Shown: positions 48,371-64,000, counted from the stretch's first letter. The stretch: DNA of 64,000 nt from a virus (IMGVR_UViG_3300038620_000126:1-64000), one strand, 5' to 3'. Numbers and translations: made by a program. The notes: generated from the sequence alone by a model not told the origin.

Positions 48371-49930
48371 TTAGTTGTTAGTCATTTTCCACTTAATTTT
48401 ATCAGTACTATAAATTTTTTCATATCCCATTTTTTTCATGATTTCAGATTCTGTATTATTACTTACAAAACTTTGATCTAGCTTAAATTTTTGTTGTATT
48501 CTTTTTTTAGAAAATGCAGATTTATGAATACGTTTATCACTTTTATAATATGAATAATCTGGTTTAGTTTCATACACTTTTTGAAAACCTAACTTTTGAT
48601 ACATATCTCCTGTAAACATTGAACTATCAGAAAAACTAATAATTTTTTCTGGATTATAATTTTTAACAAAATAATTAAATAGCTTACTAGAACCACCAAT
48701 AACATTTGTGTTAAGAATCGTAGCATATCGAGTAAGTTCCCAAACATCTTCTTTGTTTTTTGATGTTGATATATTTCTAGTTCTTTTGCTAAAACTCATA
48801 CAAGCTACCAGTCTTGTTTTATAATAAAGACCAAAATTTAATTCATAAAAAGAATTTAAACCTTGAATGTGATTTAATTTATAAAACTTTTTGATTTCTT
48901 TTGGATTGACTTTTAACACACTACATTTTCTAGCATATACTTTATTTTCGGTTTTACCAATTGCATTTTTTATAAGCGACTTTACTATATCTGTTTTGTA
49001 TTGCCAGTCATCTTCCCATACATGTATTAACCTGTATCCAGCTTTTTTGCAAAGATCTGTTTTTCTTTTATGGTAATATTTGTCATTTAAAAACTTATGT
49101 GAATGATAGTATAATCCATTGAATTCAATTGCTAATTTATAATTTGGTATTACAATATCAAGTTCATAAGGACTGATAAGTTTTTTATCATTAAAAAGTA
49201 ATTCATTATAATTTATTAAAGAAGTAATATAATTTTTTAGTTGCATTTCGCCCTTAGAAGTATATCTTTGACGTTTGTTATAACAAAGTGGAACACCATC
49301 ATTTAACAACTTATTAACTTGATTTTTATTAATAGAAAATTGATTCTGTGTGCAACTACAATCATGACACTTTAATGTAATAGAGTTGGATTCATTTTTT
49401 AAAATTTTATAATTATCTTTTAATTTTTCATAATTATTTTTTACCCATTCACTTAACACTTTTTCTTTTATATACTTTGATTGAGATGGTACTTTTGTGC
49501 CATATTTTTTAAGATTTGTGTTTTCTCTTTTTGCTTTAATTTCTTCAATTTGGTTGGGATTCTTAACTCCATACTTTTTAAGCAGTGTGTTTTCTTTAGA
49601 TTCTTTAACCGAATTGTCTTGAGAAATATTAGTAACATTATAACGATTTTGATTTGTTGCTTCTCTTTTTTTGTTTGTTATATTCTTTCCTTTTTTACGG
49701 CAATCTGAACTGCAAAATTCAGCAAATTTCTTTTTTTCGTTTATCCACTTTGTTTTTAATCCACACCATTTACATGTTGGTAAAGACTTTAATCCGTTTT
49801 TATACAAATAAAACTTTTGTGAAGTTGTTAAATCTTCAGATTTTTCTACATCACTAAAGTAATCTTTTGTATTATCTTCAAAGTATTGTCTATGCTTTTT
49901 ATATCTAAAATCCAGATTATCCATTTTCAT
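48371..49930 (-). CDS. Free-standing Hef/Vsr-like homing endonuclease
   Basis: Zn-finger CxxC...CSxxC, KKYG..N repeats, SKGE...ELDI.IP..KLAIEFNG.Y.H...IHVWEDDW, and WELTRYA...GG.SKL. Confidence 0.8.
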   Translation of the reverse strand: MKMDNLDFRYKKHRQYFEDNTKDYFSDVEKSEDLTTSQKFYLYKNGLKSLPTCKWCGLKTKWINEKKKFAEFCSSDCRKKGKNITNKKREATNQNRYNVTNISQDNSVKESKENTLLKKYGVKNPNQIEEIKAKRENTNLKKYGTKVPSQSKYIKEKVLSEWVKNNYEKLKDNYKILKNESNSITLKCHDCSCTQNQFSINKNQVNKLLNDGVPLCYNKRQRYTSKGEMQLKNYITSLINYNELLFNDKKLISPYELDIVIPNYKLAIEFNGLYYHSHKFLNDKYYHKRKTDLCKKAGYRLIHVWEDDWQYKTDIVKSLIKNAIGKTENKVYARKCSVLKVNPKEIKKFYKLNHIQGLNSFYELNFGLYYKTRLVACMSFSKRTRNISTSKNKEDVWELTRYATILNTNVIGGSSKLFNYFVKNYNPEKIISFSDSSMFTGDMYQKLGFQKVYETKPDYSYYKSDKRIHKSAFSKKRIQQKFKLDQSFVSNNTESEIMKKMGYEKIYSTDKIKWKMTNN

Positions 49931-50672: not shown

Positions 50673-50826
50673 ATTTTCATATGTTTTTGTATTTATTTAA
50701 CCTTTGACGTTAAAGATAATAAAAAGAAAAGTATTTTACAAAAGTTTAAAAATAAAAAACCCGTTCAACGATAAAGCTGAACGGGTTTTTAAGTTTAGTG
50801 ATGGTTAGATTAAAGGAAATCAACAC
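50673..50826. repeat. 154-bp direct repeat, copy 2
   Basis: Includes the last codons of the major capsid gene. Confidence 0.9.
50754..50790. terminator. Major capsid gene terminator (bidirectional)
   Basis: AAAAACCCGTTCA/TGAACGGGTTTTT. Confidence 0.85.
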
Positions 50827-52630
50827 CACCAGCATCAGATGTTACGTCGAACGTAAGATAAGAAGTTTCTGGATACTTACCTGCCTCCGTGATAGCAGCG
50901 CGAGACTTAACTGCAATCTTTGGAGCCATAGTACCTTCAGCAATAGTGCTAATCGATTCTGCCATAAGGTATGGCATAAACTTAATTCCAGGTTCTTCAT
51001 CGCTTCCCTTACGCATAACGCAAACGCGAGAATCATTCCACTGCATGTTAGCATCACTATAAACAGTAACACCGAATACAGTACCATGAGGACTTACACT
51101 TGAGTTAGCTTGATCAAATGTATTTTGGAAGCTTGATGGCATGTAACCAGCAACATCTACCATACTCTGAGTTAAACGTCCACTCATAACAGCGCAATTA
51201 CCAGGTCCAATACGGTTGCGGTGATGCAAGAAACTTGCAACAGCACCAATGGTTCTTGGAATTCTCCGTTGAATGGTTTCTTGGTTTTCATACAAGGTTG
51301 TGGTACCAGTGAAACCCAAAGCGTTTGCAGGTTGACCTGCACTAGTTGGGAACGTTGCTAGTGTATTATCTTTACCCGGGTAGGTTGAATAAACACCATT
51401 ATTACCAATGTGTAAGTTGAAGTCCGATCCTTCAGTTTTGTAACTGTTAATATGGTTAGTCCAACCTAGTGCCATTGCGCGTCCAATCAGTGCTTTACTA
51501 AAGCTTTGAGTAAGCTCATTAACACAAGCACTTTCAGACATACCAACAGCATCAATACCCCAAATGGATTGATAGTCTTGGATTTGTTCAGTCTTCAATG
51601 GTAAAGCAATTTGGAAAGTTTCTGCTTCTACCAAACGGCTGAACATTTCCATGCCCAGTTCGCGATAATAGGTATTTTCACCAGTTTCGCGACTCATTGG
51701 GGAAGCATATGGACCTGCGTTAGCACCACTTGCATTACTGTTTGTGTATTGGCCAGCTTCAAAACCTTCAAAGTTAAGAGTAAAATCATCATTGTCTTGA
51801 GAACCAGCACCACTAAATCCGGGAATGTGGTTAGTAAGTGCAGTTGCCAGTTCTGCTCTAACGCCACCAAGCGCATTACTATCAGCAACAACACTACCAC
51901 CACTAGTCGGATCAAACAACCGATAACTTGTAGTGGTTCCCGTAAATACATCACTAATAGCCAAATTACCTGCGTTATTAGTGTATTGCACACGGAAAAT
52001 TGGATCAGGAGTAATACGATGCTTACCTAAGAAAGTCAAGGTCATAACTGTTTGGTTACTACCACTGCTTTCTTGAACTTCGTATTGCCGACCTTTAACC
52101 AAGCTATCAATAGTGCTTTGAGAAAGGTTATTGACAGCAATAACATAAGGAGCATTTTGTTTGCCCTGACCACGAATTTGACCACCAGCATAATTGTACT
52201 CTAGATAAGGCAACATAATTGCAGGCTTATCCATAGGGATAACAGGGAAAAGATCAAAAGCTGGTGTTTCAGCAGCAACCTGAATTGATACAGGAAGGGC
52301 AGCAGGGAAAACATCACCAGACCCCGTGTTACCACGATAAAACACATTTTGTGTAGAACCTTGTGGACCTGCAATTGAATTACCAGCACCATATTGTGCG
52401 GGGTTTGAAGGAGCTTGAACAGCACCAATACCATTAACATTACCCAAGGAAGCAGAAGTTTGACCAGCTTCGTTCAAAGGACCCATTGCACGTTTTGCAT
52501 GGTTATGGCAATATTGGTACAGCCACTGCCTACGGGATTCAGATAGTTGACTAGTATCAATGTTCATACTTTGCAACACTGGATCCCATGTTTCTTTTAG
52601 TTTTTGACTACTGAAGTCTTTAATAAACAT
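50810..52630 (-). CDS. Major capsid protein (T4 gp23-like)
   Basis: W.PVL propeptide, PM..P, EQIQD, G..F.PY, P.IA.KSR; predicted cleavage PLNE/A; highly expressed codon bias. Confidence 0.92.
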   Translation of the reverse strand: MFIKDFSSQKLKETWDPVLQSMNIDTSQLSESRRQWLYQYCHNHAKRAMGPLNEAGQTSASLGNVNGIGAVQAPSNPAQYGAGNSIAGPQGSTQNVFYRGNTGSGDVFPAALPVSIQVAAETPAFDLFPVIPMDKPAIMLPYLEYNYAGGQIRGQGKQNAPYVIAVNNLSQSTIDSLVKGRQYEVQESSGSNQTVMTLTFLGKHRITPDPIFRVQYTNNAGNLAISDVFTGTTTSYRLFDPTSGGSVVADSNALGGVRAELATALTNHIPGFSGAGSQDNDDFTLNFEGFEAGQYTNSNASGANAGPYASPMSRETGENTYYRELGMEMFSRLVEAETFQIALPLKTEQIQDYQSIWGIDAVGMSESACVNELTQSFSKALIGRAMALGWTNHINSYKTEGSDFNLHIGNNGVYSTYPGKDNTLATFPTSAGQPANALGFTGTTTLYENQETIQRRIPRTIGAVASFLHHRNRIGPGNCAVMSGRLTQSMVDVAGYMPSSFQNTFDQANSSVSPHGTVFGVTVYSDANMQWNDSRVCVMRKGSDEEPGIKFMPYLMAESISTIAEGTMAPKIAVKSRAAITEAGKYPETSYLTFDVTSDAGGVDFL

Positions 52631-52675: not shown

Positions 52676-54982
52676 TTAACGCGAACGGTACTTTAGATTT
52701 TCTTTTAATAGTTTGAGACCATCTTCATATCCCAATTCATTAGTGCTTTGCTCTTGTGCACTTTCATAAATACCGTTGTTACGACTTAGTCCTTGAAAGT
52801 TTTGCGATGATTTTGATTTTGTATCATTCACAATTGAATTAGACTTCCAGAACTTGTTAATTTTGTTTTGAGAATCGAAATTCCAAATTTTTGCCTGATT
52901 GTGAATTTGATTACGTTCACTCTCAGATAAGTTGTTCCAAACATTTACATATTGCTTGGGCATATTTTTTATGTAGCTTGGGGCATTTTGATCGCTTTCA
53001 TAAACCCTTCTACAAACTTCATAAATTTGATTTGGGTGATAAACTTGATTCTTAGCAATCTCATCTGAAACAATTTGCTTTTGTGCACTGGACAATCCAT
53101 AGAAAAACTGTTTCTGATTTTCTGAAAGCATTCTAACAAATGGATATAGTTCATCAACTGATTCTGAATAATGCCTTGAATAAGTTTGATTTGCTGCTTC
53201 TAATGCATTATCTACAGTTTCATCAATACTTTCAATTTCAATTGAATCACCCAATTGATAGTGTTCCGTAATACCAGATTCATTCAGTGATTCTGCTATT
53301 GTTTCCGTATAATTAATGCTACTTTCAACACTAGGTTGTATTACATCTTCCATGTAACTTCCAATTGCTTCAATATTTTCTTTTAGTTTATCTGAATAAT
53401 TAATGCTACCTTCTAGGTATGGCTTAATTTCATCTTGTGTATAATCAATCAAATCATTAGTTCTTTCTGCAATGAATTCTGAATAATCTCTATTGCCTTG
53501 AATATTTTCACGAAGTTCTTCAGTATAATCAACAATGTGGTTTACATGTTCTGCAATGTTTTCGCTATAATTAATAGCACTTTCAACATTGGGGCGAAGT
53601 TCACCGTCCATATATTCACGGTTGTTGTGTATACCTTCTCTTAATTCGTTTTGGGTATAATCAATAAGTTGATTGGTTGTTTGACCAATAGCTTCGGTAT
53701 AACTAACTAGTTTATTGAATTTATTTTCAAGTGTATCAAAAGCATTTTTTATCTGCTTCGAATAGGCATTAATTTCATTTTTCAACTCTTTTATAGAGTT
53801 GTCATTTTCGAAAGTGTTGTTTTCTGCATAACCTGCAACACTATCAATTTTATTTTCAATATCTTCAAACGCTTCATTAATTTTTCTACTATGTTCTTCC
53901 AAATAGTTTGAAATTTGTTCAATTTTGCGTTGTTGATATGAATTTTCTGGAACTTTAGAACGTAGGTTTTTAATTTCTTTTTCTACATTTCTAAAATTTT
54001 TGTTGTGGGCTTCTGCGAGCCTGTCAACTTTTTGCTTTAATTTGTTTGTGGTTTTTTCAGTTTCGTAACCCATTTCTTTTAGTTTATTTTTTGTTTTATT
54101 TATTTCATTTGTTTTATTTATTTCATAATTTAAATTTTCTTCTTCAGATTCATATTCTTCATCTTCAAAGTTTTCTGATTCAAAGTTTATACGATCTATC
54201 ATTCTTTGAACCCTATTAACTTGTGATTCATTTAATGTATAGATAATTTGATTTCCATAGTCAGAATCCAAACCAAAATCTTCATTTATAATGGTAAGGT
54301 CATCTGCATCATTTACAACACCCAATCTTGGTTCATAGTCAAAGCTTGAATAAAGTGAACTATAGTTTTTATTGTTCTTTTCAGCAAGTCTTTGAAGTTG
54401 ATTATCAAGTGTTTTATAATATTCTCTATATTTTTGGCGGAGTTCTTCTCCCTCTTGAACTTGAGAAAGTTGAGCGCCCGAAAAACCGGGAACTGATACT
54501 AAATCATACGTAAAAATCTTTTTAATTTTTACTTTTTTATCATTTCCAACTTGACCTGCTGCTCTCGATGATATGTATAGCGGAACACCAGCATCAACTA
54601 AGTTTCTAGCCTGCTCCCCGTATATAGTGGGGAGTAAGCGAATTCTACCTTCAATTGTATTATTTTTCTTATTATACCAAACATTTTCAACTTTATGAGA
54701 TGCATTTTGAAGTGAAATATCAAAACCTTCTGGGTGATCCATTTCACCCAACAAAGCATTCTTTTTAGCCCTTTCTTGAAGTTGCCCTAACTGGTTTAAG
54801 TATTCCTGTTTTTCATAAATTCGATTATTATCGTTTTCTTTATCAAGTTCTGCAAAAGTACCTTCTAAAATGTAGTCTTTTGTCTTTTTATTTTCATTGT
54901 TACCTTCATTTACAAGCTCAATGTTAGAACTACTTTTTTCCAGTAAAAAAATCCATTGGTTATCATTTGTCTTATTAGACAT
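52676..54982 (-). CDS. Fused prohead protease (gp21-like) and scaffold (gp22-like)
   Basis: LEG.F....N.N.RIY, GEMDHP, SH, SSRAAG, DLV..PGF, then an acidic coiled coil with I(D/N)Y(T/S)E repeats. Confidence 0.88.
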   Translation of the reverse strand: MSNKTNDNQWIFLLEKSSSNIELVNEGNNENKKTKDYILEGTFAELDKENDNNRIYEKQEYLNQLGQLQERAKKNALLGEMDHPEGFDISLQNASHKVENVWYNKKNNTIEGRIRLLPTIYGEQARNLVDAGVPLYISSRAAGQVGNDKKVKIKKIFTYDLVSVPGFSGAQLSQVQEGEELRQKYREYYKTLDNQLQRLAEKNNKNYSSLYSSFDYEPRLGVVNDADDLTIINEDFGLDSDYGNQIIYTLNESQVNRVQRMIDRINFESENFEDEEYESEEENLNYEINKTNEINKTKNKLKEMGYETEKTTNKLKQKVDRLAEAHNKNFRNVEKEIKNLRSKVPENSYQQRKIEQISNYLEEHSRKINEAFEDIENKIDSVAGYAENNTFENDNSIKELKNEINAYSKQIKNAFDTLENKFNKLVSYTEAIGQTTNQLIDYTQNELREGIHNNREYMDGELRPNVESAINYSENIAEHVNHIVDYTEELRENIQGNRDYSEFIAERTNDLIDYTQDEIKPYLEGSINYSDKLKENIEAIGSYMEDVIQPSVESSINYTETIAESLNESGITEHYQLGDSIEIESIDETVDNALEAANQTYSRHYSESVDELYPFVRMLSENQKQFFYGLSSAQKQIVSDEIAKNQVYHPNQIYEVCRRVYESDQNAPSYIKNMPKQYVNVWNNLSESERNQIHNQAKIWNFDSQNKINKFWKSNSIVNDTKSKSSQNFQGLSRNNGIYESAQEQSTNELGYEDGLKLLKENLKYRSR

Positions 54983-62739: not shown

Positions 62740-63618
62740 TTACTTATCTTCTGGATAATCAAAGTCATCCAAATCAACATCATAATCCCAATACTTAACC
62801 TTATCAAACTTTTCTTTATCTCTTAATAATGTTCTAAACGATTGTGGAGCATACTTTTTTTGAAAAAATCTACACCACTCATCATGTGGATTACAAAAAG
62901 CACTTGCTTCATCTACTTCTTCTGAAAAGGTTACTTTTTGTGGTTGATAGCGCGTTGAAATTTTGAATTCTGCAAAACCAGCAGGGGTTACATGTACATC
63001 TTCATTTGTGTGTTCAACCTTTTTCATGTACTTGCTGATTTTATCAATAAGGAATGGTTCTTCATCTGTTCTGCTTTCAAACCCTATCATATAAACACTT
63101 AGTTGGCGAACTTTTTTAAGACTTTTTATATAAATAATATGATCTTCAAATGGTTTTATAACATTATAAATTTTTTCTGGAAGTTTATCTTTTGGGTTCT
63201 TAACTTTTACTAAATATTCATTAAGTGTTTCTGGTACATAACCCTCACCAAGTACATGTTCATAATCTTCATAATTATCTTCTTCATCTTCGTCGTCATA
63301 CATTTTATCATTATATCCAAGGGGTGTGAGTATATCACCACTTCCAGTTTGTCCAGTATAAAAATCACCAGATGGTGCTTGAACTGGCCCCATACCACCT
63401 ACATTTGAAAGTGTTGCTTCATATTCACTAAGTTTCTTAGGCAGACCTTTTCTATCGGTTTCTGCATATTCTCTAGCTGTATCCATAGATACACCATCTG
63501 CTATATTTTTAACTTTTTTAGCTAAGCTATCACTTAATTCATCAAGATCCAATTCTCCTTGTTTATAAGCATATACCATTCCAAATAATCTTTGTTGTTC
63601 TTTACTCTTTGCTGGCAT
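62740..63618 (-). CDS. Late protein with MPAKSKxQQR (DUF3008-like) N-terminus and a capsid-arm-like segment
   Basis: MPAKSKEQQRLFGMV...A.T..KGLP.K; residues 68-96 resemble MCP residues 60-107. Confidence 0.7.
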   Translation of the reverse strand: MPAKSKEQQRLFGMVYAYKQGELDLDELSDSLAKKVKNIADGVSMDTAREYAETDRKGLPKKLSEYEATLSNVGGMGPVQAPSGDFYTGQTGSGDILTPLGYNDKMYDDEDEEDNYEDYEHVLGEGYVPETLNEYLVKVKNPKDKLPEKIYNVIKPFEDHIIYIKSLKKVRQLSVYMIGFESRTDEEPFLIDKISKYMKKVEHTNEDVHVTPAGFAEFKISTRYQPQKVTFSEEVDEASAFCNPHDEWCRFFQKKYAPQSFRTLLRDKEKFDKVKYWDYDVDLDDFDYPEDK

Positions 63619-63631
63619 TAATTACTTTTTT

Positions 63632-64000
63632 TTATTTATTATTTTTATTTGATGACAAGTTATTTTCATCTAATTTTGAACTACCTAAATCTCTAGGCTT
63701 ATCATTATACAATCTATCTTTATATAGGGGATATGGAGTTTCTGCAACTTCTGGATCAACAAAAATTCTTGGTTTAATACCATCTTGCATTCTATGGCCA
63801 GAGTGTCTAGATTCTGTTGGATCAAAAGATGGTATATAAGATTCTACTTCAAAATTAATCTCCATACTGATTTCATCTTCTATTGGATAACTAAACTCAG
63901 AACGGGTTTCTCTACTAAAGTCTTCTTGAAGCCCCATTTGAACAGGGATATTCATGTTTTCAAAATTTATGTAAAACTCTTGAACTTTATAATAATTTCT
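63632..64000 (-). CDS. Possible gp15-like tail completion/sheath terminator, C-terminal part (truncated by window)
   Basis: Frame open to position 64000; NIPV...D......I...NFEVESYIP pattern. Confidence 0.45.
   Translation of the reverse strand, partial: RNYYKVQEFYINFENMNIPVQMGLQEDFSRETRSEFSYPIEDEISMEINFEVESYIPSFDPTESRHSGHRMQDGIKPRIFVDPEVAETPYPLYKDRLYNDKPRDLGSSKLDENNLSSNKNNK

Follow-up and report, generated by a model that had tools for sequence, protein, structure and literature searches.

The assembly of T4-type phage heads is a textbook system, in which it is already known that prohead proteins are handled by the gp21 protease and that one of them, gp67, mimics the major capsid protein (MCP). 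The cleavage motif of gp21 is L/I-x-E; gp67 and gp68 are cut by this protease, and the core proteins have been linked to head size (PMC9026906). In the mature capsid, residues 66–91 of gp23* form the N-fist, a segment of 25 residues that clamps four subunits of neighbouring capsomers (PMC9958956, PMC7136217). The fist contributes to the Soc site as well and is disordered or unpaired where it faces the portal, and gp24* has no fist (PMC9958956, PMC9546572, PMC7136217). An unassigned density under gp24* has been mentioned for T4 (PMC9546572). In the literature searched there was no description of proteins bearing a copy of the peptide at the N-terminus of a mature capsid protein, nor of a conserved module co-evolving with it.

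The protein considered here, P0001, carries behind a candidate prohead-protease site a copy of the N-fist equivalent of the MCP encoded in the same genome. Copies of this kind are conserved in related phages and keep pace with their own MCP, and they suggest that a class of head proteins has gone undescribed. Tentatively, and as the preferred reading, P0001 is regarded as a head protein that is trimmed by the protease, docks through its imitation of the MCP and belongs to a widespread, unannotated class of the T4 superfamily.

The head module and the P0001 gene

The stretch of DNA analysed (the window) has 64,000 nucleotides and forms the beginning of a 110-kb virus record from IMG/VR, which is ~41% complete according to CheckV and has a G+C content of 30%. 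The features of the capsid and protease genes are as follows:

50810..52630, minus strand: P0002, gp23-like MCP of 606 aa (Pfam Gp23, E = 3.6e-12)
52469..52477, minus strand: L52-N53-E54, candidate maturation cleavage site of the MCP (conservation in 25 MCPs)
52310..52453, minus strand: N-fist equivalent of the MCP, residues 60–107 (120 aligned MCP N-termini; position relative to T4 gp23)
52676..54982, minus strand: prohead protease (Peptidase_S77, T4 gp21-like) with a long coiled-coil, scaffold-like region, 768 aa (phrog_207, E = 4e-38; PF03420, E = 5e-9)

The gp23-type MCP and the adjoining gp21-like protease fusion indicate a head module of T4 type. The fusion gene is located directly upstream of the MCP gene and 7.8 kb from P0001, and a homolog of it was found at 75 of 80 related loci. 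Its protease domain occupies residues ~15–207 and a repetitive coiled coil accounts for ~560 of the 768 residues, so that protease and scaffold apparently form one polypeptide. An HNH/homing-endonuclease-like gene (519 aa; 48371..49930, minus strand; phrog_3339, E = 1e-108) lies ~880 bp downstream of the MCP gene, an arrangement that we take to resemble that of T4, where segD adjoins gene 23.

A search of 5.8 billion proteins returned 284 homologs of the MCP, with identities of at most about 40%. Among 25 MCPs the candidate cleavage site shows no variation at N53 and E54 and a conservation of at least 90% at L52. When 120 MCP N-termini are aligned, the near-invariant L-N-E is followed by two conserved blocks, SLGxVNGMGxVxxP and FYxxxxGSGDKFP, separated by a variable loop of Gly, Ala and Asn. 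The MCP profile is collinear with full-length T4 gp23, KTVGFDIVPVIPMSGPTG of this family corresponding to NLIAFDICGVQPMNSPTG of T4; judging from this alignment, the segment shared with P0001 forms the very start of the mature MCP, at the position of the T4 N-fist. AlphaFold2 assigned pLDDT values below 35 to MCP residues 45–161, fist included (monomer, 25 sequences); these values would be compatible with a segment that is ordered only in the lattice, and they carry no positional information.

The P0001 gene, on the minus strand like the MCP gene, comprises the following parts:

62740..63618, minus strand: P0001, late protein of 292 aa (ORF and translation)
63633..63640, minus strand: AATAAATA, T4-late-promoter-like motif whose end is 14 nt before the P0001 ATG (sequence)
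63433..63612, minus strand: DUF3008 domain, residues 3–62 (three-helix bundle predicted; PF11450 match)
63424..63432, minus strand: L63-S64-E65, candidate prohead-protease site (T4 gp21 motif L/I-x-E)
63331..63417, minus strand: copy of the MCP N-fist equivalent, residues 68–96, ATLSNVGGMGPVQAPSGDFYTGQTGSGDI (BLASTP and profiles)
63259..63309, minus strand: acidic linker, residues 104–120, DKMYDDEDEEDNYEDYE, where most relatives are basic (sequence)
63124..63231, minus strand: residues 130–165, two degenerate CTS-like stretches in a Lys-rich context (loose pattern match)
62743..63123, minus strand: orphan C-terminal domain, residues 166–292 (no homolog; AlphaFold2 pLDDT below 50)

P0001 reads, from start to end, DUF3008, L-S-E, N-fist copy, acidic linker, degenerate CTS-like stretch and orphan C-terminal domain. 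A late-type motif of the form [AT]ATAAATA precedes 29 of 111 ORFs at a distance of at most 45 nt, compared with a background of 1.3%, and the protease, the tagged cargo genes and P0001 are among these ORFs. The PF11450 profile covers positions 1–56 of 57 in P0001 with E = 2.1e-4 and 21.8 bits, against a gathering cut-off of 24 bits. Twenty homologs of P0001 match only its DUF3008 part (within residues 1–65, 41–65% identity), and in many of them PF11450 is a precomputed match. A single-sequence AlphaFold2 prediction gave pLDDT values of 73–83 for residues 6–58 and below 50 outside DUF3008. No relative of residues 60–292 was found at E ≤ 0.001 among 1.84 billion representatives; for the C-terminal domain the Atlas gave no usable match and a fold search peaked at Z 3.6. 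The Pfam Gp23 model has no match in P0001, and BLASTP likeness to the MCP is restricted to residues 65–97. The earlier view that the rest of the protein is not capsid-like thus agrees with the presence of DUF3008 at residues 3–62 and of no relative for residues 60–292.

Tags resembling the T4 CTS are common in this record: the pattern [LIVM].[STN][FY]..[FY][ILVM].[EQ] has 14 matches, 12 of them at ORF N-termini (for example MRSKLPTFNEFIKE), and related phages use the same tag. P0001 starts with MPAKSKEQQRLFG and has no N-terminal tag of this type (~10 residues ending in L/I-x-E). Its two degenerate stretches read ETLNEYLVK and NVIKPFEDHII (residues 131–139 and 153–162), and the first includes a second L-N-E (residues 132–134) identical to the MCP site. 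At G000:C1:80431-80460 (plus strand), outside the window, a 217-aa frame carries a CTS-like ILTFFEFLNE at its C-terminus and not at its N-terminus, a position that recalls T4 Alt, which is processed at its C-terminus.

The copied fist and its family in huge phages

The initial annotation had matched residues 68–96 of P0001 with residues 60–107 of the MCP, apart from an insertion present only in the latter. Residues and coordinates are exact, and BLASTP aligns P0001 residues 65–97 with MCP residues 57–108 at E = 2e-5, with 19 identities in 52 positions and one MCP-only gap of 19 residues; P0001 retains exactly the two blocks that are conserved across 119 related MCPs. The significance of the pairwise match is borne out by two independent profiles scored against the 1332 ORFs of at least 30 aa in the 110-kb record. 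With a profile of the segment from the MCPs of 119 other phages, the resident MCP came first (E = 7.5e-12), P0001 second (E = 0.012) and P0003 third (E = 0.052), noise starting at ~4. With a profile of 120 small-protein relatives containing no MCP, P0001 ranked first (E = 6e-9) and the resident MCP next (E = 1.8e-5). A protease site had also been proposed ahead of both segments; an L-x-E does precede each of them, the one in P0001 reading LSE65/Y and not KLSE.E/A. As for mimicry of the N-terminal arm, an MCP N-terminal copy is indeed present; it consists of the cut site and the N-fist equivalent and does not include the N-arm proper. The copy stops at G-S-G-D, approximately where the arm proper starts, for which reason it is more accurately called an N-fist copy than an N-arm copy.

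P0003 (58838..60742, minus strand) was considered as a further member of the system and rejected: its fist-like FYSGQASGSGD is part of a variable region, and none of five homologs has it. This protein of 634 aa has no Pfam or PHROG match, shares 32–42% identity with proteins of G001, G003, G005, G018 and LR756500, and is encoded at a distance of ~14 kb from the MCP in each of three genomes examined.

According to family profiles, a fist protein of the same plan is encoded by seven of seven related huge-phage genomes that are at least 85% complete, in addition to LR756500. When the whole records of relatives were searched with an arm-only MCP alignment, each of the five complete ones (270–430 kb) yielded exactly one further fist match (E from 7e-9 to 1.5e-13), in an ORF of ~150 aa located ~80 kb from the MCP. 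Strong matches were found in six more records, and divergent forms in G017, G018 and G020. Using their own MCP fists as queries, LR756500 (462 kb) gave one copy (E = 1.6e-7) and PAU and MA9V-2 gave no second copy. Within 10 kb on either side of 80 related MCPs there was no second fist, because the gene lies farther off (~80 kb in close relatives). A profile search of metagenomes returned at least 204 clusters, all of them "hypothetical" and none with a Pfam domain.

In the family plan a variable N-domain is followed by a hydrophobic-x-E site and the fist; after these come a charged linker and a short amphipathic motif within a Lys-rich end, a CTS-like tail being usual. The N-domains fall into four subtypes: a Cys-rich domain; NEDCGCGG…FRVFKDK; DUF3008 followed by NEDCGCGG…FRVFKDK; and DUF3008 alone. 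With membership defined by A-[TS]-L..[VT].G-M-G....P and G-S-G-D, the G-M-G, one Pro and the G-S-G-D are invariant in the 120 listed members, and 119 of them have a hydrophobic-x-E (L/I-x-E in 89) no more than ~30 residues ahead of the fist. In one subtype the spacing, cut site included, is the same as in the MCP (INESEGAMASL..V.GMG compared with LNESAGAYNSL..V.GMG). The core of the CTS-like motif occurs in the last 30 residues of 12 of 12 aligned fist proteins, against a mean of 0.09 after shuffling; 65 of the 120 listed members have the strict tail pattern and the others have variants such as VMGWNEFRK.

P0001 shares the fist, the site and DUF3008 with this family and is therefore considered a member. 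Its fist retains the invariants A-T-L, G-M-G, P and G-S-G-D, with L-S-E 9 residues ahead of G-M-G, the single exception being the F after GSGD-x, which is replaced by L as in LR756500. Fusion of DUF3008 to a fist is known from three lineages (the window, G018/G020 and LR756500), and an N-terminal DUF3008, the mark of subtypes C and D, is found in L120/P0232, L133 (LR756500), P0230, P0247 and P0260. Residues 1–96 of P0001 and the LR756500 protein align over 96% of their length (E = 2e-4), and in G001 a DUF3008 gene adjoins the fist gene. P0001 departs from the family in size (292 aa, compared with ~150 aa and a family range of ~130–180), in having an acidic linker and an added C-terminal domain, and in that its tail motif is degenerate; DUF3008, fist and orphan domain are a new architecture. 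Residues 130–165 are a possible counterpart of the CTS-like tail of the family, judged by position and motif, and the tail part of the family profile had no significant score against P0001 (-2.4 bits). A DUF5661-like gene (L133:1824-2135, minus strand) lies directly upstream of the DUF3008-fist gene of LR756500.1, and fusions of DUF5661 with DUF3008 occur in several metagenomic proteins (P0006, P0011 and P0012).

Conservation in relatives and co-variation with the resident MCP had been chosen beforehand as the test on which the match could fail, and both were found. For 12 distinct genomes, identities over 31 core columns were counted between every small-protein fist and every MCP fist: pairs from the same genome shared 18.0 identities and pairs from different genomes 16.0 (permutation p ≈ 1e-4, with kinship among close relatives only partly corrected). 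The pair of the window ranked first, with 19 identities compared with at most 16, and the pairs of G018, G014, G015 and G004 were also first; the signal comes mainly from divergent lineages. Paralogs evolving independently should not give such a same-genome diagonal. In the window pair the same codon is used at 8 of 19 identical residues with degenerate codons, compared with 8.9 expected, which excludes recent gene conversion in the window; the match has been kept at the protein level or stems from an old recapture. A shared third partner, or old and repeated recapture, could also be the source of the co-variation.

Possible roles of the copied fist

In the docking reading, the P0001 gene would be expressed late, together with the head genes, and its product would enter the prohead, where the gp21-like protease would cut after L63-S64-E65, thereby removing DUF3008 and exposing an MCP-like N-terminus. 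On the MCP lattice, the freed fist would take up a fist-acceptor site in the way that the fist of an MCP does on the capsomer next to it; once docked, it would tether to the shell what is left of the protein, ~225 residues made up of acidic linker and orphan domain. Candidate acceptor sites are those beside the portal or the vertices, where no neighbour supplies a fist; such sites are plausible since in T4 the fist holds adjacent capsomers together and has no partner at the portal. We infer the prohead entry, cleavage, docking, location and stoichiometry of P0001 from sequence comparison. The cut after L63-S64-E65, in particular, is predicted from the motif. The T4 fist lies on the outer surface, so that the N-terminus of a protein loaded internally would, like that of the MCP, need to be threaded through to the outside; anchoring to the inner shell, which had been suggested earlier, is not implied, the equivalent T4 peptide ending on the outside.

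A distinctly doubtful extension of the docking reading is that free fists across the T4 superfamily, from gp61.1 to the megaphages, are trimmed ligands acting in trans, which would fill empty acceptor sites at portal or vertices and rivet charged tails or cargo domains there (the 125-residue C-terminal domain of P0001 would be an example of such cargo). If this were true, the fist would be a modular capsid-anchoring tag evolving in step with each MCP. The idea of a vertex location found no support in the distribution of a compact, ~300-aa MCP paralog that has no propeptide, fist or arm: it is present in G001–G003, G005 and G007, and it is absent from several lineages with fist proteins, having been found neither in G015, G018 and LR756500 nor in this record by a search of limited sensitivity. 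The paralog, which may be a gp24-like vertex protein, starts at the GILSYLDY strand in G001 (L142:785-1690, plus strand; G001:C1:73784-74689), and those of G002 and G003 contain one in-frame TAA each.

A somewhat doubtful alternative, which fits the data almost as well as docking, is that P0001 acts as a transient prohead-core or assembly factor of the gp67/gp68 kind. It would bind the partner of the immature MCP N-terminus (scaffold, protease or the MCP inner face), couple the core to the shell or set timing or size, and then be cut up and mostly lost. There is a precedent in gp67, which copies the gp23 propeptide and cut site; the MCP N-terminus is disordered inside the prohead before expansion (PMC9546572), the family tails carry a CTS-like motif of the core-targeting kind, and cleavage at the second L-N-E of P0001 (residues 132–134) would excise an acidic peptide of 69 residues. 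However, the part copied by P0001 is the segment retained in the mature MCP and not the propeptide, the invariants of the fist are residues conserved in mature MCPs, and the similarity of gp67 to gp23 is weak and was obtained with no composition adjustment.

It is improbable that the fist and cut site serve as a recognition signal (exosite or decoy) for the prohead protease, a chaperone or a modifying enzyme, tuning or competing with MCP processing. The cut site is always part of the similarity and keeps an identical spacing in one subtype, and a common partner would also yield co-variation with the MCP. Other presumed substrates, however, have no fist, which makes this role less likely: among the 1332 ORFs the profiles pick out only the MCP and P0001, and neither the 12 tagged proteins nor the protease–scaffold fusion. 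The T4 gp21 protease, moreover, reportedly needs little beyond L/I-x-E (PMC9026906).

That the match has no function, being a chance resemblance rich in Gly, Ser and Ala or a decaying MCP fragment captured by recombination, is effectively excluded, since the short Gly-rich segment, the E = 0.012 of the MCP-only profile, the unconserved look-alike of P0003 and a lone arm-proper fragment gene in G001 are outweighed by the E = 6e-9 of the family-only profile, the invariant residues in at least 204 clusters, the presence of the gene in all seven related genomes that are at least 85% complete (family profiles), the randomised synonymous sites with residues kept, and the independent recurrence of the design in T4 and a cyanophage. 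The G001 fragment is an ORF of 114 aa (L144:343-687, plus strand; G001:C1:414642-414986) that copies the MCP N-arm proper and the next strand, SLFLPIQRVFAKTVGLDLVEVKPMSGPRGILHYMD, and among 12 records searched it occurs only in that 430-kb phage.

Returning to docking, if the copies do attach to the capsid in this way, a role would be explained for T4 gene 61.1 and for hundreds of "hypothetical" genes of jumbo phages and megaphages. They would also represent a new mode of protein attachment to capsids, with possible use in phage display and cargo loading, and would be candidates for unassigned densities near T4 vertices.

T4 and cyanophage counterparts

The copied MCP segment has its closest structural reference in the N-fist and N-arm of T4 gp23* (PDB 5VF3 and 7VS5), since it likewise lies between the maturation cut, which it follows directly, and the conserved arm strand. 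The fist of this MCP clade differs from that of T4 by its length (~45–55 residues compared with 25), with no similarity at the residue level. We know of no structure of an MCP of this clade.

Among the core proteins, T4 gp67 resembles P0001 in copying an N-terminal part of gp23 with the cut site included: its residues 2–48 match gp23 residues 20–67 with 35% identity (E = 0.005, with no composition adjustment). Unlike P0001, it copies the discarded propeptide and not the retained mature N-terminus, and the two proteins have no sequence relationship. T4 gp68 carries an internal CTS-like MPLNEFIVKH and a basic tail, and like gp67 it is unrelated to P0001 in sequence. The T4 internal proteins and Alt have in common with P0001 the context of the head module, a gp21-type protease and an L/I-x-E site, whereas P0001 has no N-terminal tag and starts with DUF3008. 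To our knowledge, no internal protein carries an MCP copy.

The homologs of DUF3008 in T4-like cyanophages are located inside the structural module. In S-ShM2, the protein SShM2_108 (T4-GC 119; L140:5001-5471, plus strand), encoded between gp16 and gp17, shows KKTYEEFVSE right after DUF3008 and then a basic region; we take this motif to be close to the T4 CTS KTYQEFIAE. A CTS-like motif of the strict pattern follows DUF3008 in 4 of 22 homologs, so that the link is a hint and not a rule. The literature search returned no paper on DUF3008, and a link with head-targeted proteins would be the first functional context for this domain.

Another protein of S-ShM2, SShM2_188 (286 aa, T4-GC 426), begins with a copy of the fist of its own MCP (70% identity over 27 residues, E = 5e-10). 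As in P0001, the chain is longer and continues beyond the fist into a body; unlike P0001, it has no DUF3008. Its gene is two genes away from the primase gene, and in T4 gene 61.1 adjoins gene 61.

The T4 protein gp61.1 (54 aa, "hypothetical protein", phrog_1823; long form phrog_2086) has the same design, as it copies residues 66–93 of its own gp23; the alignment with gp23 residues 57–93 shows 46% identity (E = 6e-9). It consists of a CTS-like leader (MKTFKEFIKE), a cut site, the fist copy DMVAGDSGGNPENISIGTTSGAVVNKGP and a Lys-rich tail (…KKKK), and its x-E site is followed by "DM", as in subtype A of the huge-phage family ([ILMV]-x-E-D-M). In the literature searched gp61.1 is scarcely mentioned, and never in a title or abstract. 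It differs from P0001 by its N-terminal tag and by having neither DUF3008 nor a C-terminal domain. The phrog_1823 and phrog_2086 profiles gave no match at E ≤ 0.1 to P0001, to its residues 63–165 or to three family members. As far as sequences tell, the T4 and S-ShM2 proteins share their design with the huge-phage family, gp61.1 having no detectable sequence relationship to it. P0001 and T4 gp61.1 each copy the cut site and mature N-terminus of their own MCP; the design is shared and the sequence content is independent.
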